From a virus (Duplodnaviria > Caudoviricetes), in IMG/VR virus record IMGVR_UViG_3300034684_000247, positions 1 to 30,000 of that record: a stretch of DNA of 30,000 nucleotides, one strand, 5' to 3'. Within the stretch, counting starts at the first letter, position 1; every line of letters begins with the position of its first letter. Position numbers and translations under genes: made by a program. The notes below the pieces were generated by a model that saw nothing but the letters and a program-made list of their open reading frames with translations, made no database searches and had not been told where the DNA came from. Shown one piece after another: positions 3,081 to 25,017 of the stretch.

Positions 3081-4199
3081 TCAGCTCCTTTCCCTCAGCA
3101 AGTCGCAGAAGAAATTGCTCCTCCCGACTACATCATCTTGGGTAATTGTCAATGTCCTCCCACCTGTAGAGTAGTGGGTTGCATTCCAAAGTTCGTCAGC
3201 ATGGGTATCCTCACTGACCCTCCGCCACCTGAAATCCTCATCTGTGAAATTCGCTGTGATATCCTCACCCCCTTTCCAAACCCGTGCCTCCATGACCGTT
3301 GAAAACGTATCTGTTGTCCTGAATACTGTCCCGTTATGGCTGATGATCTGTAATTGATAGGCATCTTCTCCAGGAGGACCCGGAACTTCCTTCGAGAGCG
3401 TGATGAAACCACTCTTTTCGTAGTACATCGAATCGCTGTAATAGGATTTGAATTTACACATGAAAGATCCATATCCATAGACAAGATCACTGTAGGAAAC
3501 TGTGAGAGTCTTGCCTGTAAGGTCCTTCCCTTCTCCCCATTCAGCATCACCCGTTCGATCCTCCGTTATTCTGCTCCAGGAAAAGTCAGTATCGGCATAC
3601 TCCGCAGTGACATCTTCCCCGTTGTGTAAAAGCATAACGGAGAGAGTGGTGGAAGTGTTATCAAGGGGAACAGATAACCCCAATGTACTTTTGATGCGCA
3701 CCTCGAACCTTTCTCTCCAATCCAAACCATTCAACATGCCTGTCGTATATTGGAAGAAGCGTTCTTCTAAAATCGAGGACGTGTCGTAATAATTGTTGAA
3801 AAGAGCCATCATTTCTTGATGGGAGGCAATTTCTGATGAAGTCCCCAAGTCTTCCAGAAGAGGCTGGAGATATCCACCCAAAGCATTGAATGCAGATATG
3901 TACACTTGGTATTCAGAAGTACCGGTAATCTCTTGTTCCTCTGACTTGGTGACCATCAGAGCATGGTTGCTCATGATTATCCGGTACTCACGGGCAAGAA
4001 TCTGTTTTTCTTGGGGAGTAACATGATTATCTGAAGAAATTTCATCTATCTGTGCCTTGATTGCAGAGGTATCCCTTTTGAGCAGTTGTGCATCCAATCC
4101 CTGGGCGAACTTCGCTACATAGTCTTTCTTGACCCCCTTGAGTTCGATAAGTTCATCTACTATGAGGCTCTTACCTGCATTGTTATACTGGTTGCTCAT
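3081..4199 (-). CDS. Tail-associated protein with an N-terminal helical region and two Ig-like repeats
   Basis: Probable start is ATG 4199 (GGAGGA RBS, ATGA overlap with the upstream stop), not 4211. Internal duplication HNGEDVTAEYADTDFSWSRITEDRTGDAEW / WKGGEDITANFTDEDFRWRRVSEDTHADELW. Confidence 0.7.
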   Translation of the reverse strand: MSNQYNNAGKSLIVDELIELKGVKKDYVAKFAQGLDAQLLKRDTSAIKAQIDEISSDNHVTPQEKQILAREYRIIMSNHALMVTKSEEQEITGTSEYQVYISAFNALGGYLQPLLEDLGTSSEIASHQEMMALFNNYYDTSSILEERFFQYTTGMLNGLDWRERFEVRIKSTLGLSVPLDNTSTTLSVMLLHNGEDVTAEYADTDFSWSRITEDRTGDAEWGEGKDLTGKTLTVSYSDLVYGYGSFMCKFKSYYSDSMYYEKSGFITLSKEVPGPPGEDAYQLQIISHNGTVFRTTDTFSTVMEARVWKGGEDITANFTDEDFRWRRVSEDTHADELWNATHYSTGGRTLTITQDDVVGRSNFFCDLLRERS

Positions 4200-7100
4200 T
4201 GATCCTCCCACAAACGGCCATAGTTGGCACCGAACAATTCAAAGGGGTTTCTTCCTTCGTATGCCTTTATTGCTCTGTTGATGAAGGCTGTCGGCAAACC
4301 TTGGATTGCCCCCACCCCATCCAAAAGGTCCCAAATTCGCTTGTCCATCTTTTCCCAATCAGTCCAATCGGTCCCCAGCGCCCTTCCAAATGCAGACGGG
4401 AGGTCCACAAGATCCCCACCATAGAATCCGCTCAATCCCTGGGAAACCATGCTCCCCACATACGGAAGGGAATAGCTCGCAATCATACTGAACACTTCAT
4501 TTCTCAGCCTCTTCCAGTATTCATCGTCATCTTCCCCATCCCTACGGAAGGCAGCCCCAGATACCAAGATGATCAGCCCACCGGATATTGCCATGTTCAT
4601 CACAATCCCGAACATCTTCCTTATCTGCTGGGGATCCTTGGTCATCTGGTAATTTTTCCAGCTTGTCGGCAAGTCGTACCAAACCATGTTGATGTATTGG
4701 AAGATCTGGTTCGTGAACAGCAATGCTGTCCTCACCCAGGGACTTTTCTTTCTCTGTACCCCGGCTAGATCCGTGGTAATTGATGTCGGCTGTGTCTCAC
4801 TGATCAGTTGGGTAGCCCTGAATGCGGCTTCCTTTCTCAGCGCTTGCTCAGCCATGTTCTCCGGGTTCCTCCTGATATATGTGTCATAGGCGGCAAGCCA
4901 GAGGGTATATACCGCCGCATGGTCCATCATCTGGATTCCTTTCATACCGATTTTTTCGTTGAATTCCTGTACCTTCGAGGAGAAAGCCCCATCGAAATCC
5001 GTTGCCTGGTACTTCTCCACCTCGACGGAGATTGCACGCTTCTTCATATACGGACTCATCTCATGGATAAATTCAATCGCCTGCTTATTTGTCCTAGGAT
5101 TTGTCAGCCTGAGAGCTGCCTGTGCCAATTCAATTGCCCCGATATCACCACGGATTGCAGCGGAAAAAGAGGGCAACTGCTTCAGCATTGTAAGGAAATT
5201 AAGCGAAAGTGCAGCAACAGCTGCATTGCTGACAATCTTGCTCCCCAGTTTCTCGATATCGTCCATGATAGATTGCGGGGACCCTACATCCTTGATATAT
5301 TCAAGCACCTGGTCATAGTATCGTTTCCCAAAGCGCATCCTGATATTCTGGCCCACTGTCCCACGGACCATCAGGTAATTCATGTCCCGGACCCAATCAG
5401 CCCACTGGATGAAGTGTTCCTGCCGTTTGATCTGGCTGGTGTAGGTGTGTGTCACGTTCAGTTTCAGGGGATAGATGGCATGTACATTCACCGGTTTGGT
5501 CATGCCCTTGTCCACCCAACGGAGGGATTCACGCATCGCCCCATTGATGATGTCCATGTTGCCCTCATCCTCTACCCCGTCGGCAATAAACGTAAAGTAT
5601 CTTTCCCTCCTGCCAAGGTTCTGGTTGTACACCTCATAATAGACATCGCGCATGCGTTCCCAAGTCTCATCCCCCCCAAGACTGTCAATCATGTAGTCCC
5701 CCCACTTCTTCTCCTTCTCGGTGAGGGTGTCAATTGCCTCATTGATCTGATCCAGTGAAATACCGTTGCCCCGGTTATGGATGAGCTTCTGAAGACCAAT
5801 CGGGTTCTGGGAATACACATACAACCCAATCACTTCCCCCTTGGTGAGCGTTTTCTTCTGACCGGAATACATCGTGTAAGTGTAGGCATCCTTCGCAAGA
5901 GCCCTGTTATCGATACCAAGTTCCTTCATCACCTTGTCGGCTTCTTCTATTCTCCGTAGTGATTCCCTGAGCTCTTCTGTCTGCTTCTCATACGCCTGCC
6001 TCACCAACAGATCATATAAATACCCTTCCTTGTTCCCATCGAGCATACGCGCAATCCTCTGCATCTTCCCGATGGAGGATTTGATTGTATTGAAGATGGC
6101 TGCAAAGGTGCTCTCTTGGTACTGTTCCCGCTTGGTGGTGAGATCATCGAGGATATCCCCTACAACAGATCCATATCCCGGGTTAATCTCAGGATTCTCT
6201 CCATAACTCTGGCGATAAATCTGCACAGCAATGTTCTGCAACCTGTTCTGTCGCTCAAGGATTCTCCTTTCCAGCATGACCCGTGCGTCAAGTCTCATCA
6301 GGTGGGCCCCATCCAAGAGAGCCCCCAGATCCTCCAAGGACCATTCCCCAATCGGCTTGCCGTACATGATCATCTTCATCATGTCTGATCCAAAATACTG
6401 CCCCATTTGTTCAGGCAGATTCACCGGATACATTTTCTCCCCGAACAAGCGCTGGATTGCAGAGAACATCGGTTCATATGAGGCATCCAGAGTCTCCGGC
6501 TTGAAGACAATTTTCTCCTTGATGCGTTTTTGCAACCTCTCTATCTCGTCACGCAACTTCCTCGAAGCCTCGCGCTTCTCGAGTGTCTCAACTCTGGAAG
6601 TAAGGACTCTTGTTCTCTCATTGGCTTTCGTAAGTTGCGACCTAAGATCTTTTACTCTTTCCCTACGCTCCTCGAGGGCCTTCTTGAGTTGGGTGGTATC
6701 CCCGTTTTTCCTTGCTTTTTCTTCGAGTTCCTTGAGTGATTCCCCTTGTTCCTCTAGGGCGTGTTTAGTATCAGCCAATTCTTTCCGGGCTTGGGAGAGT
6801 TCCTCCTTCACAATCCTGATGTCACGTTTTGCTTGGGTCCCCAACTCCTTCAGTTCCTTGTTTGCCTGTCTTTCAAGAGCCAGTACCCCGTTATGAGTGG
6901 CAAGACGTTCCCTGGCATTGTACTGATCCCGCTTATCGGTAGTTGTCCTGAGATGGGCTGCTACCTCGCGATCACTCATATCGTCATAGTTCATCGGGCT
7001 GTCCAGCGCTTCTTGGATATCTTCCCCCAGGGAATCATAGTAGGCTTCCCTGTCTGCATGACCGCTCGGCAATTCTCCCCTATACGCCTTCACACGATCC

Positions 7101-10100
7101 TCAGCCTGCTCGATATACTGGAGAGCCCTTCTGTATGGCCTGGGATCTTGCTGGACCAATGCTCGTGCCCTTTGGATTTCTTCTGCAGTGGAGTCAGTAT
7201 CCAATTGCTTGACAAAGGTAGAAACTCCCCTGAAGGATCCCCAGCGATGAACAACCCTATCCAGTTTCGGATCAACATCAAGATACCCTTTGAGAGTTCT
7301 CCCCAGCGCAATGAGAGCCTTGTCGGTCCCTGTATGCAGCCGGACAAATTGTGCATCCTTTTCCTTAGGGGTCATGATTCGTGAGTATGCATGAACCCTT
7401 CGATAGAAGGACTCATCCACTGCTGGCCAAGGGCCTACCTCACCTCTCATGTATTCCAGGTACTCGTCGAGGTCGACAAATTCCTTTGCCATTGAAAGCA
7501 GTTGGGGGAACTCCTTCAGCCTTTCCCTGAACTGCAGTTCCCTATCCGCCCACTCCTGTCCAGCATATTCTTCCAGAATCTTGTCAGGGATCCAGTAATA
7601 GGCCTGTACCGCCTTCTTTACTTCATCCGCCCTTCTACGCAGAACCTCTTGTTTCGCTTCTTCAGAGAGCTGATATAAGGTGGGGGAACTTTCAAATACA
7701 TAATTGTCAAACTCATGATTTCTATGACGTCTTCTGTATTCCCTTTGTTGCCAAGAGAAAATTGACGTACTGTAAATTTCGGCTGACTGGAGAGCAGAGA
7801 CAAATTCATTGTCTTTGACAAGAATCACATCCCTGACGAATACTCCTTCATTCTGGTACCGTTCTTCACCATCAGCGATGGCCTTTTCATAGAGTGTTTC
7901 ATCCGATGTCACAACAAACACATATACATAACCCTCTCGTTTTATGGTTGCAAACACATCGTCAAAATCCACTGTATCTTCGATTGGCTGTACATCCAGA
8001 ACCTCGTTCTGGGTGTTGACATATAACAGAATCCCCTTCCTATCTTTCATAATCGAAAGAGCATATTGCCCGACTGCCTCATGAGAATATGAAATGCCAA
8101 GGGATGTCCTTGGTTGCATCGGAACCTTATGGAAACCTTCACCAGATAGGAATGTGTAGAGCTCAGTGCTCATATCCGACTTGATCATGCTAAATTTATT
8201 ATGGTCCAGAATGATATGCCCCTTGAATCCAGGGATGTTTTCACTATAGTTCCGTGAAACCCCAAAATCCTCCTTGGAAGGTTTGACATTCCCAGAGGGG
8301 TGGTTGTGCAGGAGGAAGAACCCATCCGCCCGTCTATCAATCATCATTTCAAGTATGTCTTTGGGAAAGCGTGAGGTAACTCCTATCGTCATACCTGGGA
8401 GCCCGGAGGTAAGAGCATGATGCTCAAGGATTTCTACTGCCCCTTCTCCGATATCCTTGGTGATGATGACGTGGAAATATTCAACTTTCGGGTTCCGATA
8501 TATTGAAAAGAGTTTTGCCAAATCAGTGGATGACCTGACTTTCGTCCCCTTGAAATCTATTTTCCTGAATCGTCTCCAATCCCCATCGATAATTGGTGAG
8601 GATTCTGTGCCGTCATACCCCCATTGCGTCGGATCCCCTCTCAAAGGCCCCCAACCAGGTAATTCCTTGCTGGCAGCTTTCCCCAGTCCAAACAATGACT
8701 GATCTGGGAATTGACTATCATACTTCTGGTCTACGCCTGACTCCGGTTTGAGGTCCATGAGTTCTTCGTCTATGACATTGATTATTCTCTGTAGGTTGTC
8801 CTCGTCGTAGTTCTCACTATCATCATGCCTGATGATTTCCAATTCACCCCGGACCTCCACATCAATTCCCTTCAGCATGGAATCCATGTCGATCTCATGA
8901 GTGAATTCGTGCTCTTCCTCGAACCCTTCGCTCCCCAAGTAATATGCAGAAGAACCAATATTTGCATCATCAAATACGATGATGGTATTCTCATCGGTAA
9001 ACCTATCATTGATGAGGATCACCCCATCATGTCCATCTTGCCTTGCCTGGGCAATCATGCCGATCCACTCATCACTCACCGTGGGATCTGTCAAATCAAT
9101 CTCGACAGGGTTCTCGAGATTTACATATGCCCCTATGATGGTCGGGTCCCAGCTCTGCGCTCCCCTGTCTATGAGATCCTCAATATCCTCAAGGCTGGAA
9201 TCAACCCAATTGATTTGTCTAACCACTGGATCGTCAGCATTCGGAGACAATCCCCGATCATGCAACTCCTGGTACAGCTCCTCTCTCAGTTGTTTCAGGA
9301 TCAGAGCCCGAGGAGGCATTGCACTTACGGCATATGATTTTGCAGTGTCTTTGCTGGTTGAGAAAAAATGTCCTTGCAATGCATCCAAAGCATCAGTGTT
9401 TCTTCCCAACAATCTCGAGGAATAATCCGTAAACAACGAAGCAGACCCGTGATATACCATCAACGGGTTGCCATTTGCGTCCTTTATCTTGGTGTTCTTG
9501 AATTTCTCATCGAAGGCGACGGACCCTACCGGGGGCGCCTTCTGGAACAGTGATGTCCTTAGTCTTTCTTCGGTTCTTCTGAGTTGTTCTCCTGAGTATC
9601 TTTCGAGGAGCTCTTCGTATAATTTCCCCCGATCAACCACCCACGAGAATAAATCGGATCGTCGGCTGATATTTCCTTTATCAAGGATCCCTTCCCTTTC
9701 GGAACCTTCACTCCTTCCTTCAGACGCATCATATCCGTATTCTCCCTCAACCCATATTTTACCGGATTCAGTTATCCCTAAATCATCAGCATAATCTTCT
9801 ATGAATTCCCCAAGTACATCAAGGAAATCCTCATTGTATATTCTTGGTACATGGGAAACATCATCCGTATGTGGATTCACTATTATTATCTCATCGGGGG
9901 CTGATTGTGTAAACCCTACATCCTCAAAGATATTTCCCAACAATGTTGCAATCCTAGTGACTTTCTCACGACTCAAATCTGCATTGAAGGCAATTTTCAC
10001 CGCTCGTGCATACTTTCCCCCAACTATGGCAATATCCTCTTCCTGCAATTTGCCCTTTTTGATGTCTTTCTCATTTTTCTTGAGATATTCACTCCTATAT

Positions 10101-13100
10101 GCATCTGCCTCAGCCTGGGTGTTAACCTTGCTTTTCTGTAATGTGGTTTGCCCTACCACCTTACCGTTTTTATCCCGTTTATATTTAACCACCTTGAACA
10201 TGAGTTCTTCAGATTCTGTCTTTGAGAAAATCGGAACAGGATTCGGACGGAAGAAAGGGACAACATCCTGTTTGAAGATGTATTGCAATGCCCTCGCATA
10301 TTTTCTCACCTGATCAAAGGAAAGATCTTGCCCTTTAACCCTTGATGGGTATAGGGAAGATATAACAGCCGGGGCTATTCTGGACTGAGATCCCTTATAG
10401 CTCAACAAGGTATTTGTTGTGGGAACCCCCAATGCCTCGGCAAGAAGGTCTTTCCCCCCCACATCCACAACTAGGGCAAGAGCTTCCCTAGTGAATTGCT
10501 CTTGTACAGGAATAGAAGCATTATTGATTTCATAACCAAGATCGGGTGCAGGAATTGCTTCCCAGGTAACAACCTGGGAGGATGCCTGTATAGCTTCCTT
10601 GAAGGAAAACCCTGAACGTTCTGCCTCTTTTCTCACTTCCTCTGATGTCCCAGCATACTTCAGCGCATTGCTTCTCCATCTCTGTAAATGATTTACCCGC
10701 TTCTCCCCGGAAGAGGCATATTGCACGTTCCCCTCGTCATCCAGCCATGCATCCCCTTTTTCAAGGGAAACCTTATTCGTCATGGCCTTGACATGAGGCA
10801 TTTCATACCTGGTCTTCATAGCAGTCCAAATTGCCGCCTGCACCTGATGTGGAGTCCAAGGGTCCTCACCTGGCAACAGCTTTGCATTGCGCTCTGCAGC
10901 CAATCTCTTCGTTGTGTTCTCGCTGAAAGAGTATTTGCCGGTTCCCTTGTCATTGCCGTACGATTCTACGATGTAGCCGAAAGCCCGGGCCATCCAAAGG
11001 TCCATCGTGGCAACATCGCTCGTATCCATGTCGGGGAAAGACTCAGGATACTTGCTGATCAATTCATTGATCAGGTTATCGTAAAAGGACCCTGTCTTTC
11101 TCCCAATCCATGTTTCGTTGTGATATAAGGCCCTTCGTGCCTTCTCGTCATTGACCCCTATCCCAGACTCAAGAGACTCTTCAGGTAACCCAGCTTTCCA
11201 ATGATTAAATGCCCTGATTGCCATGAGAGTGTTCCCAGGAACATTGTTGTTTGGCGAATATATTGCAAGGAGCTGGATGAATTTTCTGACTTGCTCCGGA
11301 TCCCGATCCAACATTTTCCAGACTTCCAGAGCACTCTCTTCATACCAATAACGGCCTGATACACCCTCACTTATATATTTTCTAAGCTCCCTGAGCAACC
11401 TGTTCCAGTCCTTCCTGTCCTTGACCCATTCAGGTGCACCCTTGATGATGCCGGTAGAGGTAATCTCCGGTTCCCAATGACGATAAGCCTTCAGTAATGG
11501 ATCAGACTTCTGGTACAACGTGTCACTGCGATAGTTGAACCGCTTTGAAGGGGGTACAATGTTCCCATCCTCATCACGCACGATGAGATCAAACAATTTT
11601 CGATTGTTCTTGGTGTTGCGGTATGCATAAGTCCTGCCATCATCATATCCCAGCTCTGCGATGGAATTCACATCCCACCATACATGCTCCAACGGTACAG
11701 AATGGCTGATGATCCTGTATCCCCCCGGGATCATCCTTCCTTCGTTCCTGGCATATTCGACATCAGGCGTGACCCAGTCCCCGTTTCTGAACCAATCCTC
11801 TTTCACATTCTTGGGGATTGCACGATACAGACGGATATTCCCTCTGCCGTATCTTTCCAACCGGTCCAATGCAGACCTTACCTTCCAGAAGGAATACATT
11901 TCAGTATCCCCTGCATACCAGCGGGGGTGATCCCAATAGTCCTTTGGCAATAACCCTGATTCGTCAAGCCTAGCCAGATTGGCACTGAAGTTATCCTTGC
12001 TGTTCGGAGCCTGATGTTGCATCCTGAAATCATTGGAGGAGATGTACCCTCGTCTTCTGGCCATTTCATCCACGATCCGTTGGGCTGTGGTTTCGTCGCC
12101 TGCCTCCAGCGCCTTGAAATAACGATCGTCAGCTGAGGACTCCTGGAACAAAGGACCCCTTGGGACTGATTCAATACTGTAGGGTTCAACCGATGCTATA
12201 CGGATCTGTTCATTCCTGAACACAACAGCTTCCACAACCTCCCCATTGCGCAGATCAAGCACCCCGTCATACCCATAGGATTGGATTTTCTCTGCAAGCA
12301 ACTTCCCAAACTCCGAGGAATATTGCTCCACTCTTGGGTTCTCTTTTACAATTTCGTCTCTAATTTTACTCCATTCTTTGTCCCATTCCTGATCATATCG
12401 AAGAGGATTATCCATTTTCAAATATGCATGGTAGATATATCCTATATTGTTTTTTGTAGCATAGGTCTGCGCTATACCCTTGTCCCCGGTAAAATAATAC
12501 CCAGCACCCAGATATCCGTTGTCATTATCCTGTGTCCGAATGAAATCATCGAACATGTTCGGGCTTCCATGCAGCAATTCAATCGGATTCCCATTCTCAT
12601 CCACGACCTTGCTTTCACCGAACCATGCCTTGAATGCTTCGCTATTAATAGGGGGGGCTTGCTGGAAGAGAATGTTCGGATTATTTGAATCCCATGTACC
12701 TTGGTTGTTTACTGATTTAATCTTTGTGGGAGCGAAGACAACGATCTCATTACCGAAACGAGCAGCATCATACCCAAGGTTTTCAGCAATCTGTATGTCA
12801 TACTGCTGTGCAAGAGCTAAGAGGTCCTGATTGCTTGCGTTATCAAACCCAGGCTCCATCCATACTACGTCAATCTTCAGTCCATCTAGGGACCGTTCTT
12901 CTCTAGCTTTCGCTCTTTCATGGAAATAGTTTTCTGTATCGGCCTTCTTCTTCTCAAAAAACTTTGCTCCAGCTTGTCTACCTTTTTCTGTATCGTCAAA
13001 AGATTTCCTTACTTCTTTCCCATATCCTGCTATTTCTGATTCTGGGACTTTATCATTTAACCTGTCTATAATTCTTGATCTATCTTCATTACTTAGGTTA

Positions 13101-16100
13101 CCCCAGTCTAATAGCCTTTCAGCGCTAATATAAACCGGCATGATATTAGCCCCATACTGTTGTGCTTTACGTATATCAGGAGTGAAATAATATCCATATC
13201 CCAATGATGGTAGCTTTTCTCCGGTATTACTAAAAGTTGTAAATGCAGCATCAGTTCCATGATACACAACCAGCGGATTCCCGTTCTCATCCACGACCTT
13301 GCTTTCACCAAACCATTGCTTGAATGCTTCGCTGTCGGTTGGTGGAGCTTCCTGGAAGAGGATGTTAGAGTTACTCCCGTCGAACGTTCCGATGTTGCCG
13401 GTTGCGGATTTGATTTGGGTGGGTTTATAGACTACATATGATTCTGATCGCCCTGATGAGGATGGATCTGTAAACGCTACCCCGTCATAACCAATGTACT
13501 CGGCTGTACGTAGCACATCATCTTGATAGTTTTGATAGAAGTCTTGTGTTCCGTATGACCTGTTGGCATCTACGCCCGATTCGCCAATCCCATCACGGAA
13601 CAATATAACATCTTCAATAATGTGGTCATAATCTTCTGAACCCTCGGTAGCTTCTACGGCTTGATTGATTTTCAAATCCTGCTCTTCTTCTGTATCAAGT
13701 TCCCAAAGGTATCCGAGCTCTGAAAATTCTGAATGATCATAATAACGGCTCTCCAGATAGCTTCCTAAATCTGACGGATCATACTTGCTGCCGAAAGCAC
13801 TTGTTAACACCTCTTTTCTAACGGAATACTTATCCAAATAGGCGGGGTTCCTTATGTCCAGAAACACCTCATATATTTTTCCCCCATAGAAATCCGCTGT
13901 ATTTTTATCTGGCGCAAAGAAAAATCCGTATGATGTTCTTTGCTCTGCAAATGTATCAAATTCATTGGGTGAACCATGATAGACAATCAACGGCTCCCCA
14001 TTTTCATCGACAACCTTGGAAGCGTTCTCAGGATCATTGATCCAGTCCCCAAACCATTCTATGAATGCGGGAGTACGCACCTGCACCCATTGACGCTCGG
14101 TGAGATTGGTAGGTTTCCCATTTGGGGCCTTCATCCACTGGTCAGTGTTGTAATACCTGTCGTGTAGCTCGGCATACTCGGCCTGAAGTTGCTCCTGCTG
14201 ACCTTGTTCTTCCTCAATTGAAATTGAATAGATATCATCGGGGTCAAAGATAGCGACAGTGTCTGATTCAAGACCGCTCGGGGAGTCACCGATATTCCTG
14301 AAATAAACTCCATTGTACCCTTCCAGGAGTGCCTTCTCGATTGTCTCATCAATATTGACATCTCCCTCTACTTCCAGAAGATTCGTAGCGCCAAGATACA
14401 CCCTGTTCAGGACAGGGTCTGCCTCTGATGGGAATGCATTGAAATCTCCTGTTGCAAGTGAGGACTCTATGCTTGCAAGCTTTTCGTCTGCTTGGTTGAT
14501 TTGCTCTTCCAAGTCCTCAAGCCTCTGGTCATATTCTTCTGTATCAATCTCATCGTTGTGCCACTGCTTGGTGATGCGCTCGCTTTCCTCATTCAGATCA
14601 TCCATCAAGGCCTCAAGACGCACTTGCTCCTCTCGCATTGCACGAGCCTCAGCTGCAAGGTCTGCATACTCTTGTGCAACCTCCTCGCTATCAGTAAAGA
14701 AGAATGCCTTGCCTGCACTGTTGGCCCCAGTAATGAGCCCTTGCTGAGTTGGGCTATAATCATCTATCGCACGATCGCTACCGTGGAAAAATACACGGAG
14801 GGACCCATCGGGATTCTTCAATGTTTCATGTGCACTCTTCGCAATCATCCTATACTGGAACGAACCTGTTGCAGGGGCTTTCTGTTTCAGTGCCACTCCT
14901 GGGCCTGATGTGGGAGGCGTCCCTTCCTTGGTGTTTGAGACAATCAGGTTGTCAAACATCTGTTTCACCTCTGGGTCCAGCTCACCACCGAACTCTAGGA
15001 CGAAACGTTGGAGCACAGCCTTCATTCGTCTGAAGATGTTGCTGAGGCCTTCTGTCGGGGCCTCTCCTGTCCGCAAGTATCTGACAAAGTCATCGGCAAA
15101 TGCTTCCTCATTTGCTTCGACCACTTTCAACGCGGCCTCAAATGAATCAAATGTCTGGTCTCCCACAACATATCTGTCACCCACCTTGTTGATGTCCTCA
15201 ATCCAGACACCAGTGGAGCCCTTCCCATAATGGGCTGTAAATTCGGCGATCTGTTCCTTTGTCGCAGTACCACGCAAGAAGTGCCCGATCTCATGGAGCA
15301 GGGTGGAAGCATCCGCCCGTTCGGTGAGATGGATTGTATATTGTTTCTTCCCATCCACCGTTATGTTGTTGATATACCCGCGCTCCCCCTCAGGAGATGC
15401 CTTCACGAGCTTGAACAGCAGATTCTCCCTGAGCATCTGGTCAGTGCTGATACCAAGTGTGTCGGCAACCAGTTTAATTGCATCTACATTGCTCTCGAGA
15501 TCTGCAGTTGAAATACGTCCTTCCGTATGGGATGACAAGTCTCCCAATGCCCTCTTGATTGTCTCTCGCTCCTCCCATGCAAGAGCTTGTTCCTCGGACA
15601 CCCTTGCCAAGCTATATGGGGACTCTGGATCATCGTAATAACTGATGTCTGGGTCGGTACCTTCCTGCCCTTCCTGCAATACACGCAAGGGAACCCTGCG
15701 GATTGCTCCATTCTCATCGCGAAGGATGATGTCAGCTCCATTCTCTTTTTCTTCCACAGATTCGATATTTGGGGCGAGAAGGTAAATTGCACGATTCATG
15801 GCATCGCCATCCTCAAATGCTATGCTCTCATCACCTAGAAGCTTCCCTCCTGTGGCAATCGCCGCACGGTTTAGCAGGGACATGCGATCATCCGTTTCCA
15901 TCGGGGCAAGGTCCTCTACAATAACCTCCATTGCCTCTGCATTCTTTTTCCTTGCCTTGGCTGCTTTCCTTGCCTCGTATTCATCCACAGGGGCAAGATG
16001 GGTCCCCACGTTGGCAACCCTGATGGGATCAATTTTTGAGTCGGGTTCTTCCTTGCCATCTTCCTCGACATCAGTTTTCGGCACGCTGACAAATGAACTA

Positions 16101-17299
16101 TCCACAGGGACTGAGGCATCGGTGGTATTGAAGTTTTTCTTTGCTTTGGCCCGTAGGGATGCTGAAACGACACCCTGTCCGATACCAGCTGAAAGCATGC
16201 TGGTAAGGAACATGCTTTTCCCTGCATCAAGGAAAGCCTTTGTGCCTTTCCTTATGCTGTCCCCAAGAGAGATCAGGTCGAATTCCGCCCCATCCTTGTT
16301 TGCCATGGCCTTCAAGGCATTGGTGAACCCATCCTCCAGGCCTGACTGGATCCCCTCCTCCACCGACTCTCCTGCCGTACCTTCAATGCTCTTGAAAGTG
16401 AAATTCTTGAATGCGTTGGCCAGCCCTCTCTCAAGATGTTTGACCAGTTCCCTGTCTGTGAATTTCGTCTTGAGCTGGCGATACCATGGGAACAGTTCCA
16501 TGCTTCCAAGTTCCACGAGCCCCATCATGCCTGCAAGGCTGTGGAACAGGGCTCCTCCTGCAGGGGAGTCCCAGGGAAGGGTGTTGTTTTCGGCGTCCCT
16601 CATGTTCATTACGTCATAAAGGACGTTGCCTGCCTGGGAATATCCTGTAGTGAAGAGGTTCACTCCGTTTGCGGCAATTCCCCCTCCCTTGGCAAGCACT
16701 TTCGAGACCGCCGGGCCCCACACCTTGTTGGCGACACCACCCGGTATCCATGAGAGGAGTGCACTGGTGAGAATGAATTTAGCGGAGGAAACAGTAGGCT
16801 GTACGCCCGAGAGCACAAGGTCACCCAATTCCCCGTATGATTCGAACAACGGGGCCTTCAAGGCCTTCGCATTGTACTCATCCGCATTCTCAAGAAACTT
16901 CGTATCTCCGGTCATTCGGTACAATGACGTATTGATACCACGCATCTCGGTCCAATAGGCTTCCTGTGCCTTGTTCTTCAATGCTTCCCAATAGGTCTTG
17001 TCGCGTGTATCTATGCCTGTAGCGGCTGAGGCAAACCCAAACTCAGCCATCTTGTTTGCGGTCTCCATGTCAATGCCGAAATTGTTGAGCATGATGGCCG
17101 TATCATGCTTTGCTATAGCACCATCAGGATCGGGGGAGTTGTAGATGATTTGCTCAAGCCCTTCCCTTGTCTTTTGCTCAATATCGAACAATCCAACCTG
17201 CAAATCGGGAACGCCGAAATCCTTTGATCTCTCAGGGTTTCCAATCTTGAGCATCCGCATGATTTCACTATTCTGCATCAATTTTTCAAAATCTGTCAT
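4196..17299 (-). CDS. Giant (4367 aa) polyvalent internal-virion/ejection protein: HExxH metallopeptidase, six ART-like domains, HhH-glycosylase-like domain, RadC/JAB domain, helical C-terminus
   Basis: Uninterrupted 13.1 kb ORF in the last ejection-protein position. Motifs: LLHEIGH (15281-15295) plus EEAFA; five [YFL]HG[ST]...[FY]F[TSA] repeats; one LYRA..WVT..ELGY domain; SP..N/K..SF/DLWMAR/QVQAAIW; HNHPSGNVKPSKED (HNH at 8300-8308). Confidence 0.85.
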   Translation of the reverse strand: MTDFEKLMQNSEIMRMLKIGNPERSKDFGVPDLQVGLFDIEQKTREGLEQIIYNSPDPDGAIAKHDTAIMLNNFGIDMETANKMAEFGFASAATGIDTRDKTYWEALKNKAQEAYWTEMRGINTSLYRMTGDTKFLENADEYNAKALKAPLFESYGELGDLVLSGVQPTVSSAKFILTSALLSWIPGGVANKVWGPAVSKVLAKGGGIAANGVNLFTTGYSQAGNVLYDVMNMRDAENNTLPWDSPAGGALFHSLAGMMGLVELGSMELFPWYRQLKTKFTDRELVKHLERGLANAFKNFTFKSIEGTAGESVEEGIQSGLEDGFTNALKAMANKDGAEFDLISLGDSIRKGTKAFLDAGKSMFLTSMLSAGIGQGVVSASLRAKAKKNFNTTDASVPVDSSFVSVPKTDVEEDGKEEPDSKIDPIRVANVGTHLAPVDEYEARKAAKARKKNAEAMEVIVEDLAPMETDDRMSLLNRAAIATGGKLLGDESIAFEDGDAMNRAIYLLAPNIESVEEKENGADIILRDENGAIRRVPLRVLQEGQEGTDPDISYYDDPESPYSLARVSEEQALAWEERETIKRALGDLSSHTEGRISTADLESNVDAIKLVADTLGISTDQMLRENLLFKLVKASPEGERGYINNITVDGKKQYTIHLTERADASTLLHEIGHFLRGTATKEQIAEFTAHYGKGSTGVWIEDINKVGDRYVVGDQTFDSFEAALKVVEANEEAFADDFVRYLRTGEAPTEGLSNIFRRMKAVLQRFVLEFGGELDPEVKQMFDNLIVSNTKEGTPPTSGPGVALKQKAPATGSFQYRMIAKSAHETLKNPDGSLRVFFHGSDRAIDDYSPTQQGLITGANSAGKAFFFTDSEEVAQEYADLAAEARAMREEQVRLEALMDDLNEESERITKQWHNDEIDTEEYDQRLEDLEEQINQADEKLASIESSLATGDFNAFPSEADPVLNRVYLGATNLLEVEGDVNIDETIEKALLEGYNGVYFRNIGDSPSGLESDTVAIFDPDDIYSISIEEEQGQQEQLQAEYAELHDRYYNTDQWMKAPNGKPTNLTERQWVQVRTPAFIEWFGDWINDPENASKVVDENGEPLIVYHGSPNEFDTFAEQRTSYGFFFAPDKNTADFYGGKIYEVFLDIRNPAYLDKYSVRKEVLTSAFGSKYDPSDLGSYLESRYYDHSEFSELGYLWELDTEEEQDLKINQAVEATEGSEDYDHIIEDVILFRDGIGESGVDANRSYGTQDFYQNYQDDVLRTAEYIGYDGVAFTDPSSSGRSESYVVYKPTQIKSATGNIGTFDGSNSNILFQEAPPTDSEAFKQWFGESKVVDENGNPLVVYHGTDAAFTTFSNTGEKLPSLGYGYYFTPDIRKAQQYGANIMPVYISAERLLDWGNLSNEDRSRIIDRLNDKVPESEIAGYGKEVRKSFDDTEKGRQAGAKFFEKKKADTENYFHERAKAREERSLDGLKIDVVWMEPGFDNASNQDLLALAQQYDIQIAENLGYDAARFGNEIVVFAPTKIKSVNNQGTWDSNNPNILFQQAPPINSEAFKAWFGESKVVDENGNPIELLHGSPNMFDDFIRTQDNDNGYLGAGYYFTGDKGIAQTYATKNNIGYIYHAYLKMDNPLRYDQEWDKEWSKIRDEIVKENPRVEQYSSEFGKLLAEKIQSYGYDGVLDLRNGEVVEAVVFRNEQIRIASVEPYSIESVPRGPLFQESSADDRYFKALEAGDETTAQRIVDEMARRRGYISSNDFRMQHQAPNSKDNFSANLARLDESGLLPKDYWDHPRWYAGDTEMYSFWKVRSALDRLERYGRGNIRLYRAIPKNVKEDWFRNGDWVTPDVEYARNEGRMIPGGYRIISHSVPLEHVWWDVNSIAELGYDDGRTYAYRNTKNNRKLFDLIVRDEDGNIVPPSKRFNYRSDTLYQKSDPLLKAYRHWEPEITSTGIIKGAPEWVKDRKDWNRLLRELRKYISEGVSGRYWYEESALEVWKMLDRDPEQVRKFIQLLAIYSPNNNVPGNTLMAIRAFNHWKAGLPEESLESGIGVNDEKARRALYHNETWIGRKTGSFYDNLINELISKYPESFPDMDTSDVATMDLWMARAFGYIVESYGNDKGTGKYSFSENTTKRLAAERNAKLLPGEDPWTPHQVQAAIWTAMKTRYEMPHVKAMTNKVSLEKGDAWLDDEGNVQYASSGEKRVNHLQRWRSNALKYAGTSEEVRKEAERSGFSFKEAIQASSQVVTWEAIPAPDLGYEINNASIPVQEQFTREALALVVDVGGKDLLAEALGVPTTNTLLSYKGSQSRIAPAVISSLYPSRVKGQDLSFDQVRKYARALQYIFKQDVVPFFRPNPVPIFSKTESEELMFKVVKYKRDKNGKVVGQTTLQKSKVNTQAEADAYRSEYLKKNEKDIKKGKLQEEDIAIVGGKYARAVKIAFNADLSREKVTRIATLLGNIFEDVGFTQSAPDEIIIVNPHTDDVSHVPRIYNEDFLDVLGEFIEDYADDLGITESGKIWVEGEYGYDASEGRSEGSEREGILDKGNISRRSDLFSWVVDRGKLYEELLERYSGEQLRRTEERLRTSLFQKAPPVGSVAFDEKFKNTKIKDANGNPLMVYHGSASLFTDYSSRLLGRNTDALDALQGHFFSTSKDTAKSYAVSAMPPRALILKQLREELYQELHDRGLSPNADDPVVRQINWVDSSLEDIEDLIDRGAQSWDPTIIGAYVNLENPVEIDLTDPTVSDEWIGMIAQARQDGHDGVILINDRFTDENTIIVFDDANIGSSAYYLGSEGFEEEHEFTHEIDMDSMLKGIDVEVRGELEIIRHDDSENYDEDNLQRIINVIDEELMDLKPESGVDQKYDSQFPDQSLFGLGKAASKELPGWGPLRGDPTQWGYDGTESSPIIDGDWRRFRKIDFKGTKVRSSTDLAKLFSIYRNPKVEYFHVIITKDIGEGAVEILEHHALTSGLPGMTIGVTSRFPKDILEMMIDRRADGFFLLHNHPSGNVKPSKEDFGVSRNYSENIPGFKGHIILDHNKFSMIKSDMSTELYTFLSGEGFHKVPMQPRTSLGISYSHEAVGQYALSIMKDRKGILLYVNTQNEVLDVQPIEDTVDFDDVFATIKREGYVYVFVVTSDETLYEKAIADGEERYQNEGVFVRDVILVKDNEFVSALQSAEIYSTSIFSWQQREYRRRHRNHEFDNYVFESSPTLYQLSEEAKQEVLRRRADEVKKAVQAYYWIPDKILEEYAGQEWADRELQFRERLKEFPQLLSMAKEFVDLDEYLEYMRGEVGPWPAVDESFYRRVHAYSRIMTPKEKDAQFVRLHTGTDKALIALGRTLKGYLDVDPKLDRVVHRWGSFRGVSTFVKQLDTDSTAEEIQRARALVQQDPRPYRRALQYIEQAEDRVKAYRGELPSGHADREAYYDSLGEDIQEALDSPMNYDDMSDREVAAHLRTTTDKRDQYNARERLATHNGVLALERQANKELKELGTQAKRDIRIVKEELSQARKELADTKHALEEQGESLKELEEKARKNGDTTQLKKALEERRERVKDLRSQLTKANERTRVLTSRVETLEKREASRKLRDEIERLQKRIKEKIVFKPETLDASYEPMFSAIQRLFGEKMYPVNLPEQMGQYFGSDMMKMIMYGKPIGEWSLEDLGALLDGAHLMRLDARVMLERRILERQNRLQNIAVQIYRQSYGENPEINPGYGSVVGDILDDLTTKREQYQESTFAAIFNTIKSSIGKMQRIARMLDGNKEGYLYDLLVRQAYEKQTEELRESLRRIEEADKVMKELGIDNRALAKDAYTYTMYSGQKKTLTKGEVIGLYVYSQNPIGLQKLIHNRGNGISLDQINEAIDTLTEKEKKWGDYMIDSLGGDETWERMRDVYYEVYNQNLGRRERYFTFIADGVEDEGNMDIINGAMRESLRWVDKGMTKPVNVHAIYPLKLNVTHTYTSQIKRQEHFIQWADWVRDMNYLMVRGTVGQNIRMRFGKRYYDQVLEYIKDVGSPQSIMDDIEKLGSKIVSNAAVAALSLNFLTMLKQLPSFSAAIRGDIGAIELAQAALRLTNPRTNKQAIEFIHEMSPYMKKRAISVEVEKYQATDFDGAFSSKVQEFNEKIGMKGIQMMDHAAVYTLWLAAYDTYIRRNPENMAEQALRKEAAFRATQLISETQPTSITTDLAGVQRKKSPWVRTALLFTNQIFQYINMVWYDLPTSWKNYQMTKDPQQIRKMFGIVMNMAISGGLIILVSGAAFRRDGEDDDEYWKRLRNEVFSMIASYSLPYVGSMVSQGLSGFYGGDLVDLPSAFGRALGTDWTDWEKMDKRIWDLLDGVGAIQGLPTAFINRAIKAYEGRNPFELFGANYGRLWEDQ
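12584..12676. repeat. Intragenic direct repeat, copy A (encodes NILFQQAPPINSEAFKAWFGESKVVDENGNP)
   Basis: 12584-12643 matches 13274-13333 at 56 of 60 nt, with weaker similarity out to 12676. The offset is 690 nt (in frame). Confidence 0.9.
13274..13366. repeat. Intragenic direct repeat, copy B (encodes NILFQEAPPTDSEAFKQWFGESKVVDENGNP)
   Basis: Partner of 12584-12676, read directly from the sequence. Confidence 0.9.
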
Positions 17300-17308: not shown

Positions 17309-20300
17309 TTAAAGCCTTTTTCTCAGAGTATTTGCAGGCATACCCATCAGGTTGTAACGGTATGCCATGATGTCGTCGGTGAGAGTCTTGAGTTCGTTCT
17401 GTTTCGCCTCAAGCTCATCAAGAACGCCATAGTACTTGTCGTCCAACTCCTCTTGGACTTTTACAGGTGAGATCCCGAGCCCTCCCAAGCCCAATACCGA
17501 GGAGGCACTGTCCCTGTTCCGGTCCGCTTGTTGTTTCCTGGAATCGAACATTGGGTCCCCAGCCTGTTTCTTGAGCGCCTCTATCTCATAAGTGAGCTGC
17601 GGGTCGACGTAATCAGCAAACATCACAAGGTTGTGAACCCCGTCGGAGTCTGCTGTTGCCATCCCCCAACCCAAGGTGCCTCGTTTTTCGGCATCTGCAT
17701 CAGTGGCAATGAAGTACAATCCTTCCGCCTTCGGATCCGAAAAAGCCCAATTCTTACCCATGACCTTCATGTCACTGGGTTTGATGCCAAAGGATCCTAT
17801 CAGGGCTTTTTCAAGCGCTCCACCTGCCATCAGGAAAGACACATTCGCCATCACCTTCAATTGTTCAAATCGTGTCCCGTTATCCAGCAGTTCCTGGTAA
17901 TCCTTATATGGAGTGAGTTTCCTGGAGAGTGCATCCTGGACAATTGTCTTGTCGGCATTCCTCAAGCTTCTGATTTCTGGTTGCTGGACCACGTCATAGT
18001 TGATCAGAACGTCATAATCCCCAGCCTGTACGTCCTGCAGGAATGTTGAGACCGTGCTGTGCTCAAGATTTGTAATGCGTTTGGAGATATCCCCGTTTGC
18101 CATCAAGTCAGTGACCTTCTCCAGGTCATCGAGGGAGTTCTTGGCCAGATTATTGACGGCAAACGTCTGGAGTTGTGCCTGCAACTTGGAAAAGTCACTC
18201 CCCAGCAATTCAGGATTCATTGCAATTGCCTTGTTTGCCGAATCATTCAATGTTGTTCTCAGCCGATCCCGATTTGAGTTGTAGACCTCACCCTTCTTGA
18301 CGGGGAATACCTCATCGGCAATCTTCCCGATATAGGCTTGAAGATCCGCCTCCTTGGGGTTCTCAGCAAATGCATACTTCTGGGTGAGCCGTTTATCCTG
18401 CGCAGTTTCAGCCTTGATCAGACCGTTGTTGACGAATCCCTCAACCGCCTGGCGGAGGCTCTCCGACGATACATTCTGGTCACGTCTCAAGGAATCAATG
18501 AAGGATAGTGCAAGGGGACTGTCCACCAGGAAAGAGTCCTTGGTACTGGCCATCTCAATTATTTGCTCCCTGATATCATCATTGCGGATGAGGGCGAGTT
18601 CCTCCTGGGTGAGATATTTCCCTTCACCGTCCTTGATGATCTGGAGCATGTTAGAAACCAGCGCTTCCTGTGTCATCCCTCGTTCCAGAGGAGGACGGGA
18701 TGATGGTATCTGTTCGGCCTTGGGAGCCGTTACCCCAGCCTGCTTCTGTACACTCTCAGCCTCGGAGGCAAGTCTGGCTTGATAGGCAGCTCTTTCTTCC
18801 TTGATTCCCTTCCGTCGCTCCTGACGCTTTGCGGAATATTGCTCATACCACCAAGGATCTGCAGATTCTTCTTCCTCTGATTCCAGGTCTGGCTCTTCCT
18901 CCGATGATTGCTCTTGCCCCTCTGCTGGCTCTTCCTTTTTCTGGTGTGTAATTTTCTCAACTTGCTCGTCAACGATTTCCCTGGCTGCTTCTCGTACAGC
19001 CGCTGATGAAGGCTCTTCCCCCTTCTCGGGAGCTTCCCCACCTGCTCCCATATCCAGAGGGGCCCCCAGTCCCAGAGAGATCTTTGGGACAATTGCCTTC
19101 TCGACTTCCTTGATATGCTCCTCTATGTATTCTTCCCCGCGATCCTCCAACTGGGCCGGGTCAAGCTGCGGTGCTTTCGACCGAGTGGTTTCTGCAATCT
19201 CTGCAATTGTCTGCTCGGGAATCCGGGAAACTGTGCCGATCTCGTCCTGGGTATTCGCAAGCATGTCCTTTGCAACTTTCGTGACATCACTCTCCAAGTC
19301 GAGCTGTGCTTTGGTGAACATCGCCAGAGCCTTGGTCCTTGCCCTTGCTGACACTGGGCCATCATAGCCCTGGATTGCTTCCCTCGCCTCGGATAGGCTT
19401 TTCCCGGATGAGACAAGGGCTTCCCCATAACCGACCAGCAAGGTCGAGCCCAACTCATCACGTTTCTCCGGATCATGGACCAGTTCCACCTGTTTCCATT
19501 CTGCTTCAGTTGGCAATCTCGATTCGTCTGCTATGCTGAGGATTGATGCTTCCAGAAGCTTGTCGTTGTTTGCATATGCATCCTTCTTGGCCTTGAATAC
19601 TCCAAGCCGATGCTTGGCAGGAAGTGCTTCCATCATCCCGTCAAGCATGGATACATCAAAGATCTCACCATCATCATATGCTTGGGCTATCCCAGCGTTC
19701 ACCTCGTCCAGCTGGGAGGCATACATGGTATCCATCTGCTGGTCATATTCAGTCTTCCAGGAACTGACTTGCTTCTTCATCTCCTTCTTCTGGCTTGCAT
19801 CAAGCCCCAACTCAAAGGCAACCTGGTCAATGCTTTCCGTCAGGCTGAAGCTGTCATCGGCATAATGATCCATGTATGATTTCTGCACCACCTGCATTCC
19901 CTTGACCGGTGCAATCGAATACGCATACTCATCAACCATCTTCCCGACGGTCGCCTCGTTGAAGATCTGGAGCTCCTCGAGATGATCCTTGTACCCTTTC
20001 AGGGTCTGTGCATAATCCAGTGAGCTGTCACTGGCCAATGCCGACCCGAGGCCTTCAACCTCAACCTCGATCTCAGCCATCTTCCCCTTGGTCCTGAGAA
20101 TGCCCGCATTGCTGGAGATTTGTTTCTTGTAGACGGGAATATACTCATCCCTGATGGTCCGTTTTGCCTCATCACTCAACAACTCGTTCTCATCAAGCTG
20201 CATCTCGATATCGGCAAAATACGCATCAATCTTCTCTTGGTAACTGTCATAATCCCTGTCGTATTGGAGATTGTAAAGAAACTCCTCATTGAGCCCCTCT

Positions 20301-20464
20301 ATACCGGTGGTTTCCCGGGTGATGTCTGCCTTGTCCTTTGCCTGGTCAAGGGCTTGGTCGTACTTGGCAAGTGATGCTATTCCCCCGAGGAAATTCATCC
20401 CTGTGTCCAAGGCACTTGCCTGTGCATCAGCCTTCAGCCCCGCCACATATGATTTCACACCCAT
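17309..20464 (-). CDS. Probable internal virion (ejection/core) protein, positional equivalent of T7 gp15
   Basis: 1051 aa, apparently helical and acidic, with a low-complexity Glu-rich middle. AGGAG RBS. Assigned by synteny only. Confidence 0.6.
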   Translation of the reverse strand: MGVKSYVAGLKADAQASALDTGMNFLGGIASLAKYDQALDQAKDKADITRETTGIEGLNEEFLYNLQYDRDYDSYQEKIDAYFADIEMQLDENELLSDEAKRTIRDEYIPVYKKQISSNAGILRTKGKMAEIEVEVEGLGSALASDSSLDYAQTLKGYKDHLEELQIFNEATVGKMVDEYAYSIAPVKGMQVVQKSYMDHYADDSFSLTESIDQVAFELGLDASQKKEMKKQVSSWKTEYDQQMDTMYASQLDEVNAGIAQAYDDGEIFDVSMLDGMMEALPAKHRLGVFKAKKDAYANNDKLLEASILSIADESRLPTEAEWKQVELVHDPEKRDELGSTLLVGYGEALVSSGKSLSEAREAIQGYDGPVSARARTKALAMFTKAQLDLESDVTKVAKDMLANTQDEIGTVSRIPEQTIAEIAETTRSKAPQLDPAQLEDRGEEYIEEHIKEVEKAIVPKISLGLGAPLDMGAGGEAPEKGEEPSSAAVREAAREIVDEQVEKITHQKKEEPAEGQEQSSEEEPDLESEEEESADPWWYEQYSAKRQERRKGIKEERAAYQARLASEAESVQKQAGVTAPKAEQIPSSRPPLERGMTQEALVSNMLQIIKDGEGKYLTQEELALIRNDDIREQIIEMASTKDSFLVDSPLALSFIDSLRRDQNVSSESLRQAVEGFVNNGLIKAETAQDKRLTQKYAFAENPKEADLQAYIGKIADEVFPVKKGEVYNSNRDRLRTTLNDSANKAIAMNPELLGSDFSKLQAQLQTFAVNNLAKNSLDDLEKVTDLMANGDISKRITNLEHSTVSTFLQDVQAGDYDVLINYDVVQQPEIRSLRNADKTIVQDALSRKLTPYKDYQELLDNGTRFEQLKVMANVSFLMAGGALEKALIGSFGIKPSDMKVMGKNWAFSDPKAEGLYFIATDADAEKRGTLGWGMATADSDGVHNLVMFADYVDPQLTYEIEALKKQAGDPMFDSRKQQADRNRDSASSVLGLGGLGISPVKVQEELDDKYYGVLDELEAKQNELKTLTDDIMAYRYNLMGMPANTLRKRL

Positions 20465-20473
20465 GCATTTCTC

Positions 20474-21250
20474 CTAAGCGAACATAGCCATGCCCTGGAA
20501 GAACCCGCCGAAGCCTCCTCCTATGATGTCCCACTTTCTCGCTGAATCGAGGGCTTCCCTTCCTTCAGTCTTGAGGTAGTTGATATCACTTGCGAGGTAT
20601 CCTCCCTTGAGCTCATAGGTCTCCTTCGCCTGCGCCAATTGCAGGTCGAGCTTTCCTATTTCCCTTTCCAAGGCATTGTTGTTCTGCGTGATTTTCCTTC
20701 TGTATGCAGCTTCCTGCTGGTTTGCAGAGACATAATTGTTCAAGGCACTCGTGTATGTCTGGTACCTTGCAATCTGGTTCTGTTTCCGAGCTGTATCCTT
20801 TGCCGTAGCTCCTGCACTGATGGCGTTCTCCACACGAGCTTGCGCGGTACCCGTTCCCCGGAAACCGCTTGTTGCCGCTTGTTGCCTAGCCGCACCCGTT
20901 TGTTGGGTGTTCTGTACTTCCAGCGTTGCCAATTGCAATGCATTCACGGTGCTTTGCATGGACCCGGCCGTTGCAGTTTGTTCCAGGGCCATGTCCCTGT
21001 TGGCAAGGGTCTCCTCTGCAAGCAGGTTCAGTTCTGTATTTGCCTCGGCTGTCCCCGCCTTTGCCTGCTCCACCCCCAGGTTGTAGCTTTGTTTTGCTTG
21101 GTTGTAACCGGTATCCAGCAGTGTCTTCTGCCTGTTCAGGTCCTCTAGTTTGTCCTGGTACTCAGCTTCCCGTTGGTCAGCCTTGTTGCGCCCATTGATG
21201 GCACCCATCAGTCCACCTGCTACAGCTCCCAATACCAACAATCCACCCAT
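20474..21250 (-). CDS. Probable small internal virion (ejection) protein, positional equivalent of T7 gp14 / P22 gp7
   Basis: 258 aa. Gly-rich hydrophobic N- and C-termini (MGGLLVLGAVAGGLMGA; IIGGGFGGFFQGMAMFA) flank an Ala/Gln-rich coiled coil. The central 'AATSGFRGTGT' resembles the A.SG..G motif of such proteins. Follows the nozzle gene. Confidence 0.65.
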   Translation of the reverse strand: MGGLLVLGAVAGGLMGAINGRNKADQREAEYQDKLEDLNRQKTLLDTGYNQAKQSYNLGVEQAKAGTAEANTELNLLAEETLANRDMALEQTATAGSMQSTVNALQLATLEVQNTQQTGAARQQAATSGFRGTGTAQARVENAISAGATAKDTARKQNQIARYQTYTSALNNYVSANQQEAAYRRKITQNNNALEREIGKLDLQLAQAKETYELKGGYLASDINYLKTEGREALDSARKWDIIGGGFGGFFQGMAMFA

Positions 21251-22857: not shown

Positions 22858-22858
22858 G

Positions 22859-23386
22859 TCACCCCTCCCGGCTGTTGTTGTGACATTCCGTGGAAATCAA
22901 TCCATTGAGTGCCCATGTGTACTTCTGAAGCGTTATCTGGTCTATCTTCCCTTCCGGTGCAAGGAGAGGTGCGATTTGGTAGGCAAGTGCATAGGCAATC
23001 AACTCATAGAAATCTGCAGGCACATGGCTTGCAGGCAGGCTTTCCATGATGCCGTATACCACCGGCTCATCCAGATCCGTATAGATTCTCCCCCCTGCTA
23101 CCTCATAGGGGAATTCACTGAATGCATGGACAACCTTGAGCAAACCCTCCGGGAGAAGGAACCCATGAAGATATCCCCTCCCAGGTTCATCGTCTTCCAA
23201 GACAAGCTGGAGCCTGACAATCAGGAACGACCAGTCGAACTCACGCATCACCCTGAGTTGGGCCAGGTTATGATACAGCTTGCACAAACGCACCTCCCTT
23301 GAGGGATTCGGGCTGTCCAGGTCTTCCTGGGTGACCTCGCGATCAAACAGGGAAAGTGCAATGCTGTAAAGCTCAAGGTCTGTCAT
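22859..23386 (-). CDS. Tail adaptor (tail tubular protein A-like)
   Basis: MTDLELYSIAL start, FDWSF motif and F.ELIAY.LA..IAP.L motif. Lies between capsid genes and nozzle. GGAG RBS favours ATG 23386 (or 23389) over 23401. Confidence 0.8.
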   Translation of the reverse strand: MTDLELYSIALSLFDREVTQEDLDSPNPSREVRLCKLYHNLAQLRVMREFDWSFLIVRLQLVLEDDEPGRGYLHGFLLPEGLLKVVHAFSEFPYEVAGGRIYTDLDEPVVYGIMESLPASHVPADFYELIAYALAYQIAPLLAPEGKIDQITLQKYTWALNGLISTECHNNSREG

Positions 23387-23404
23387 CATATGCTCCAACA
23401 ATTC

Positions 23405-23420
23405 GGGGGCCGAAGCCCCC
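23405..23420 (-). terminator. GC-rich hairpin with cUUCGg tetraloop after the head genes (terminator/attenuator or mRNA stabiliser)
   Basis: Minus strand GGGGGC-TTCG-GCCCCC lies 6 nt after the stop at 23427. The U-tract is weak (GAATTGTT), so it is probably leaky. Confidence 0.6.
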
Positions 23421-23426
23421 TGTCAT

Positions 23427-23986: not shown

Positions 23987-23997
23987 CTAGCACCTCC

Positions 23998-25008: not shown

Positions 25009-25017
25009 TTACCCTCC

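Follow-up and report, generated by a model that had tools for sequence, protein, structure and literature searches.

A hydrophobic-x-Gln motif at the module joints of a giant Bbp10-like phage protein follows the type of its built-in zincin and may mark cleavage sites

Large, multi-domain polyvalent proteins of phages hold a zincin-like metallopeptidase, several ADP-ribosyltransferase (ART-PolyVal) domains and RadC, and the metallopeptidase was proposed to process its own polypeptide, releasing the domains by autoproteolysis (Iyer et al., 2017; PMC5512222). The parts of that work covered here give no recognition site, whereas in a protein of similar make-up we find a candidate site together with its link to one metallopeptidase clade. 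This giant protein is encoded in a 30,000-nt stretch of phage DNA (positions 1 to 30,000 of the IMG/VR record IMGVR_UViG_3300034684_000247; hereafter the window) and is likely a T7-gp16-like ejection protein with swappable enzyme modules. At most joints the modules are parted by the motif L[FY]Q, a form of a hydrophobic-x-Gln tag that follows the type of built-in zinc protease across relatives, and the tag therefore likely marks effector cut points. We put at about 0.55 the probability that L[FY]Q at the joints is a recognition site cut by the protein's own HExxH zincin; that it is a protease site of some kind, whichever enzyme cuts, is more probable still.

Bbp10 of phage BPP-1 (phrog_9880; epsilon15 group), given as a homologue of T7 IVP-D (gp16) in a table within the part of PMC4819975 covered, shares with the giant protein its zincin clade, its place in the gene order behind the tail genes and its hydrophobic-x-Gln joints. 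In Bbp10 the cargo lies inside the zincin, whereas the giant protein, at twice the length, has a contiguous zincin with the cargo after it. The prohead proteases T4 gp21 and SPN3US gp245 also rely on a linear three-residue code: it flags the cleavage points of ejected head proteins, among them the two ends of the ART Alt, which gp21 cleaves at ITE and LTE (PMC5694885, as far as covered). These are separate head proteases that cut after Glu during head maturation, whereas here the candidate enzyme is a zincin in cis, the residue is Gln and one chain holds many effectors. The N4 virion RNA polymerase (vRNAP) gp50 likewise combines an HExxH domain with enzymatic cargo in one giant ejection protein, but it is packaged unprocessed, and the passages of PMC13434306 and PMC5512222 covered report no junction motif. 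Already known, then, are the phage polyvalent protein and the proposal of zincin self-processing; new here are a family-wide anchor of the motif, covariation counts, module tails that track the protein carrying them, and a candidate specificity residue. Polyprotein joints cut by the picornaviral 3C and potyviral NIa proteases, which are of the cysteine type, read hydrophobic-aromatic-Gln followed by a small residue; these enzymes are unrelated to zincins, and we treat the likeness as convergence or chance, with no evidential weight. Our search of openly available papers found no account of the motif or of Bbp10-type processing.

The six L[FY]Q junctions listed in an earlier note on this DNA, and the ALKQ variant it placed directly behind the HExxH peptidase, lie exactly where claimed (Table 1). 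One further LYQ (ELYQ) stands away from the junctions, and the ART1/ART2 junction lacks the motif, both as reported there. L[FY]Q occurs seven times in the giant protein against 1.16 expected from composition (Poisson P 2e-4, a post hoc value since the pattern was picked after the fact), with six of the seven at joints; these six represent five independent contexts, because sites 1314 and 1544 share a 119-nt repeat (80% identity; paralogous). In five related proteins, [LM][FY]Q is found 27 times in 7,811 amino acids (aa) of variable region, although five of these serve to delimit that region and one is ELYQ, versus a single occurrence in the 9,905 aa that are conserved (P 4e-9). At the position of the LKQ variant, relatives carry VLFQ, VMFQ, TLFQ or KLYQ. 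The motif is very likely real and under selection.

Module swapping occurs at or near the motif. The proteins P0001-P0004 and those of loci L001, L002 and L013 have the N-terminus, the zincin and the C-terminus in common and differ in their cargo and its order, and the motif stands at joints after unrelated sequences, in line with the earlier claim that domain duplication alone does not account for it. In P0004, four Pfam domains (LPD3, PBECR1, ART and MuF_C) each lie inside a separate inter-motif segment. The variable region could be mapped in 33 proteins; of the 195 BLAST block ends among them, 37 fall within 5 aa of [LFY]xQ, against 13.1 +/- 3.1 in 500 shifts (maximum 21), an excess inflated by the tendency of BLAST to stop on matching residues. 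Both this test and the comparison of variable with conserved regions thus show enrichment at boundaries in homologues. Contigs from two other studies bypass ART2 or ART2 and ART3, one of them rejoining exactly at 13360 (single contigs, depth 3.3 and 9.9). Such swaps would suit a translated DNA recombination site for module shuffling, and we considered this as the motif's origin. At 21 junctions, however, all six Leu codons are used, Gln is encoded by CAG in 11 and CAA in 10, and the flanking bases are unconserved, so the constraint acts on the protein; furthermore, no repeat family is common to unrelated junctions. The codon variation and the lack of repeats led us to reject the recombination site, which is largely refuted.

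The motif is found throughout the wider family. In Bbp10-type proteins the cargo interrupts the zincin after the first strand and before the second. Of 74 such proteins in a non-redundant set, 69 have [LFYVM]xQ at most 14 aa ahead of the second strand (the RG strand), against a background of 20%; this count omits five loci, three not anchorable (L016, L058, L106) and two without HExxH in the longest open reading frame (ORF; L015, L068). BPP-1 Bbp10 itself has a single PBECR1 module flanked by FDQ and FYQ. The spacing from motif to RG strand ranges from 2 to 12 aa and is therefore unlike that of a fixed fold element. A structural domain cap, or a leftover copied with each module and devoid of any signalling role, is a quite improbable explanation of the motif. 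In the model of ART3, the upstream motif is in low-confidence coil (block predicted local distance difference test, pLDDT, 53), and the downstream motif is coil just past a beta-bridge at N1542 (block pLDDT 76, then 51 further on), so that the motif is not an element of the predicted fold, a point on which the earlier note had let its claim depend. The Asn-Ile ahead of the ART-tail motif would pack on the domain through this bridge, as a cap should, and the motif is present in the zincin loop even of proteins without an insert. On the other side, the window zincin is predicted to fold with no motif in that loop, the motifs of this lineage having shifted to the cargo that follows; close domain relatives bear other tails in other host proteins; and the folds and linkers that precede the motif are unrelated, its spacing being variable.

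The tag at the end of a module depends on the protein in which the module sits. Our tail survey took 246 proteins, nearly all from an ART search, into 174 clusters, of which 164 have a readable ART tail. The majority tail residue is Q in 83 of the 87 clusters with a Bbp10-type zincin, in 4/34 with another HExxH domain and in 10/43 without HExxH, where several of the 43 are short or partial sequences and the first two classes probably contain one misplaced member each; that the clusters are not phylogenetically independent, and that the query's own ILFQ tail favours Q matches, lessens what these counts can say for a zincin that reads Gln. Other tails occupy the same ART slot, namely R-[FY]-S, K-[AS] and [IL]-x-E, and in P0088 every one of the five joints ends in E. 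The nearest outside relatives of ART3 (48-59% identity) have non-Q tails, and remoter ones (33-37%) that lie in Bbp10-type proteins end in LFQ or similar. Module 5 ends in IRFS in P0117, a host protein of the Ser type. Judged from these sequences, the tail of an ART or other module follows the code of its host protein. On an ART tree built with the tails removed (a quick method, poorly resolved, 12 of 152 branches starred), Q requires 42 changes, only 3 of them forced, versus 49.8 when shuffled, which suggests but does not prove that ART tails switched repeatedly. Further codes were seen beside these. In gp225 of jumbo phage Tunturi_5 (L019 9437-13225), next to the portal gene, ART modules are parted by x-T-A/[SA] joints, and L117 2496-4176 holds three tandem short ART frames with an INEN tail on each.

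The motif and the zincin clade could both merely track phage lineage, the motif being the cut site of another enzyme, such as a protease of the host or a head protease of the phage that has escaped recognition, with the zincin directed at the host or the cell wall; we consider this rather improbable. A cell-wall role has been proposed for the phi24B gp47 metallopeptidase, in the part of the source covered, and a 264-aa ORF ahead of the capsid gene (25018-25812, minus strand) matches a PHROG labelled 'protease' (E 1e-9). That ORF, however, looks like a T7-type scaffold, which we take as a lead only. An HK97-type head protease (PF04586) was found in none of five related records, in a search whose control was positive in 4 of 14 genomes and in which the window itself is a 30-kb record; a PF03420 search gave 0/5 in the same records with a silent control and is hence uninformative. 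Also contrary to simple lineage tracking, the same zincin and motif occur in the 125-kb phage Lbo-JY46, against another protein background, and in an archaeal-host virus. The virus at L009 (4877-10801), assigned to Methanomicrobiales hosts, has a zincin of the same clade and the Gln joints QFQ and RFQ.

The HExxH domain of the giant protein matches phrog_9880 (E 2.5e-13), BPP-1 Bbp10 (E 6e-4) and relatives of Bbp10. H669, E670 and H673 of the HExxH motif and the third Glu, E732, are invariant in all 63 aligned zincins. The fold predicted for the window zincin consists of a helix, three strands and the HExxH helix (pLDDT 83), as expected of a zincin. Foldseek returned no match to the model at E<=0.001; the best structural match is an aminopeptidase N (Z 5.7, root-mean-square deviation 3.4, 83 aligned), with PPEP-2 at Z 5.1. 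No solved zincin relative was found by sequence (best E 0.04, unrelated). D663 is a candidate specificity residue, as E-type tails occur in 4/6 proteins that lack D/N six residues ahead of HE versus 0/107 that have it, the former from two lineages only. As a natural dead-peptidase control we looked to Xanthomonas and Xylella phages with partial matches, all of which retain HExxH. In Xanthomonas phage JUN5 (L103 3311-10747), the cargo within the insert of the Bbp10-type zincin includes another HExxH domain, unlike the first. In Xylella phage Usme (L102 3156-10507) the annotation divides the giant gene into two ORFs, against one in JUN5, and the break resembles a frameshift.

Cleavage itself is suggested by the T4-type [IL]-x-E that other proteins carry in this slot, taken as an analogy, and by free ART genes that end there, and the covariation of motif and zincin points to the zincin as the candidate cutter. 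[IL]-x-E occupies the slot at repeated joints of P0011, P0159 and P0141; the best relatives of P0141 are on contigs of 226-282 kb, and the [IL]-x-E proteins are jumbo-phage-type. In a second set of 44 ART ORFs, collected with non-Q queries, seven stop at the tail slot, as does JA13_190, and the slot is thus a natural end of a free ART enzyme. If the zincin does cut, fusion of the cargo to an ejection protein would guarantee its delivery, and cuts on both sides of a module would release effectors of 20-75 kDa; the pieces predicted for cutting after each Gln are 88, 58, 26, 20, 25, 75, 71 and 134 kDa. Our preferred timing, a guess, would be release after ejection. On the model of IxE, the scissile bond may follow Gln; alternatively it may precede the hydrophobic residue, which is the preference of thermolysin-like enzymes.

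We think it unlikely that the motif is instead a docking, packing or unfolding tag that is never cut and that the zincin-like domain or the ejection channel reads while the chain is threaded whole. Such a tag would explain the covariation with the zincin clade and the single motif per joint equally well; N4 vRNAP requires its zincin region for encapsidation yet stays unprocessed, one protein (P0045) retains its motifs despite an altered HExxH, and a Pro following Q is tolerated. The invariance of the catalytic Glu in 63/63 aligned domains, the known protease pattern in the same slot of other phages and the free ARTs ending at the slot speak for cleavage.

Several observations weigh against cleavage by the protein's own zincin. 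P0045 (3436 aa) has EEAIH in place of HExxH at aa 1330-1340 and keeps six Q joints; it is the sole altered case, a search for its relatives found none, and the Glu of EEAIH might still bind zinc. Two joints of the giant protein lack the full motif, ART1/ART2 and ART5/RadC, the latter retaining only a worn form. Pro follows Q at 7 of 62 sites, which is awkward for cleavage after Q, and P0007 mixes Q and E joints. In the second ART set, Q tails occur in 5/21 proteins with another HExxH domain, so that Q is not exclusive to the Bbp10-type clade; as only one Bbp10-type protein is present there, this set does not retest the link between Q and zincin (Fisher p 0.27). The zincin model also matches RNase YbeY (Z 5.2), these fold matches being middling. 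The [IL]-x-E proteins are likened to the T4 pattern by their motif. Among described systems, the vRNAP of N4 enters the virion without processing, and ArdC and TraC1, although both have zincins, are transferred intact (PMC5512222, in the parts covered). In the literature searched for processing of any family member, no cleavage data were found. Of the effector polyprotein proposed in the earlier note, the part supported is a junction signal that is under selection at the protein level and varies together with the zincin clade; the cleavage and the cis cutter are inferred, and release after injection is a guess.

A broader scheme, which we hold tentatively and at slightly less than even odds, is that widespread podophages with bacterial and archaeal hosts use an ejection protein as a self-cleaving effector polyprotein, in which the cis zincin would read hydrophobic-x-Gln, incoming modules would be re-tagged to the code of the host protein, and a change by the active-site helix would retune Gln to Glu. 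If true, DNA phages would have their own counterpart to the polyprotein processing of RNA viruses, and effector boundaries could be predicted from sequence by a rule; large cargo on a channel-forming ejection protein could act as separate enzymes, and the tags would delimit unknown effector domains. The self-processing proposal of 2017, made without sites, now has exact candidate sites, a candidate enzyme and, in D663, a candidate specificity residue, and cultured phages of harmless hosts bear the same code. Among these, gp39 of Caulobacter phage Jess A (2039 aa) has predicted joints at Q587 and Q791, and gp32 of Cobetia phage Carin1 (2854 aa) at Q903, Q1492 and Q1605.

The window encodes, on the minus strand, terminase, portal, a probable scaffold, the GP7 major capsid protein, Bbp16, tail proteins, two further ORFs, the giant ORF and tail-fibre genes, and the phage is a BPP-1-like podophage (short-tailed). 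Its host is probably a free-living spirochaete, because the proteins nearest to those of the window come from Sphaerochaetaceae records. Gene order and Bbp10 homology indicate that the giant protein is presumably a virion component, packaged and ejected. Pfam finds five ART-PolyVal stretches, DUF7178 and RadC in it. With five ARTs, DUF7178, RadC and a zincin in one polypeptide, encoded amid phage virion genes, it has the composition and the setting of a polyvalent protein. A search with the C-terminal region matched 66 stored proteins, including that of L009 (21%, E 6e-10), with Bbp10 itself absent at E<=1e-5.

Table 1. Modules, junctions and neighbouring genes of the giant protein (window coordinates)
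Feature	Position	Strand	Residues (aa)	Basis
Giant polyvalent protein, 496 kDa; putative Bbp10/IVP-D-like internal virion protein	4196..17299	-	4367 in total	
Conserved N-terminal region, without L[FY]Q	15578..17299	-	1-574	
Zincin-like metallopeptidase domain, Bbp10/phrog_9880 type	14930..15577	-	575-790	
Zincin residue D663	15311-15313	-	663	
Zincin motif HEIGH	15281-15295	-	669-673	
Zincin third ligand E732	15104-15106	-	732	
Variant junction LKQ (ALKQ from aa 804)	14882..14890	-	804-806	
Second variant SFQ (SFQ/Y), immediately ahead of ART1; absent from the earlier note	14855..14863	-	813-815	
ART-PolyVal module 1 with coiled-coil insert; C-terminal junction without motif here, LFQ in P0001 and L001	14210..14851	-		Pfam
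ART-PolyVal module 2; missing or substituted in close strains	13361..14182	-		Pfam
LFQ junction	13352..13360	-	1314-1316	
ART-PolyVal module 3	12671..13351	-		Pfam
LFQ junction	12662..12670	-	1544-1546	
ART-PolyVal module 4	12152..12661	-		Pfam
LFQ junction	12143..12151	-	1717-1719	
Module 5, without Pfam family; phrog_2579 match	11519..12142	-		
LYQ junction	11510..11518	-	1928-1930	
Module 6, holds DUF7178; bounded by FNQ and LFQ in distant L071	9551..11509	-		
LFQ junction	9542..9550	-	2584-2586	
ART-PolyVal module 5 plus acidic segment; includes non-junction ELYQ (9269-9277, aa 2675)	8690..9541	-		Pfam
Worn junction ART5/RadC, LFG (SLFG/LGK); TIFE/LGK in L001; likewise absent from the earlier note	8687-8695	-	2869	
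RadC/JAB module	7679..8689	-		Pfam
LYQ junction, final joint ahead of the conserved C-terminal region	7670..7678	-	3208-3210	
Conserved C-terminal region, without L[FY]Q; single strongly hydrophobic segment at aa 4229	4199..7669	-	1157 in total	
Upstream podophage morphogenesis genes: terminase, portal, probable scaffold, GP7 major capsid, Bbp16, tail proteins, two probable internal virion proteins	17309..29968	-		Pfam and PHROG matches

Among the modules, module 5 is a member of an unnamed viral family (Atlas 0.91), a search of Atlas for a named one having returned none, and it moves between host proteins of the Gln and Ser types. Module 6 contains a stretch, TMDLWMAR, that is reminiscent of the region around the catalytic Asp in DNA glycosylases of the HhH-GPD type. 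A tail-fibre-like protein encoded downstream of the giant gene (107-2074, minus strand) combines a collagen stretch with an Lcl domain at its C-terminus; it lies about where BPP-1 carries the diversified Mtd, and a diversity-generating retroelement could sit past the left end of the window.

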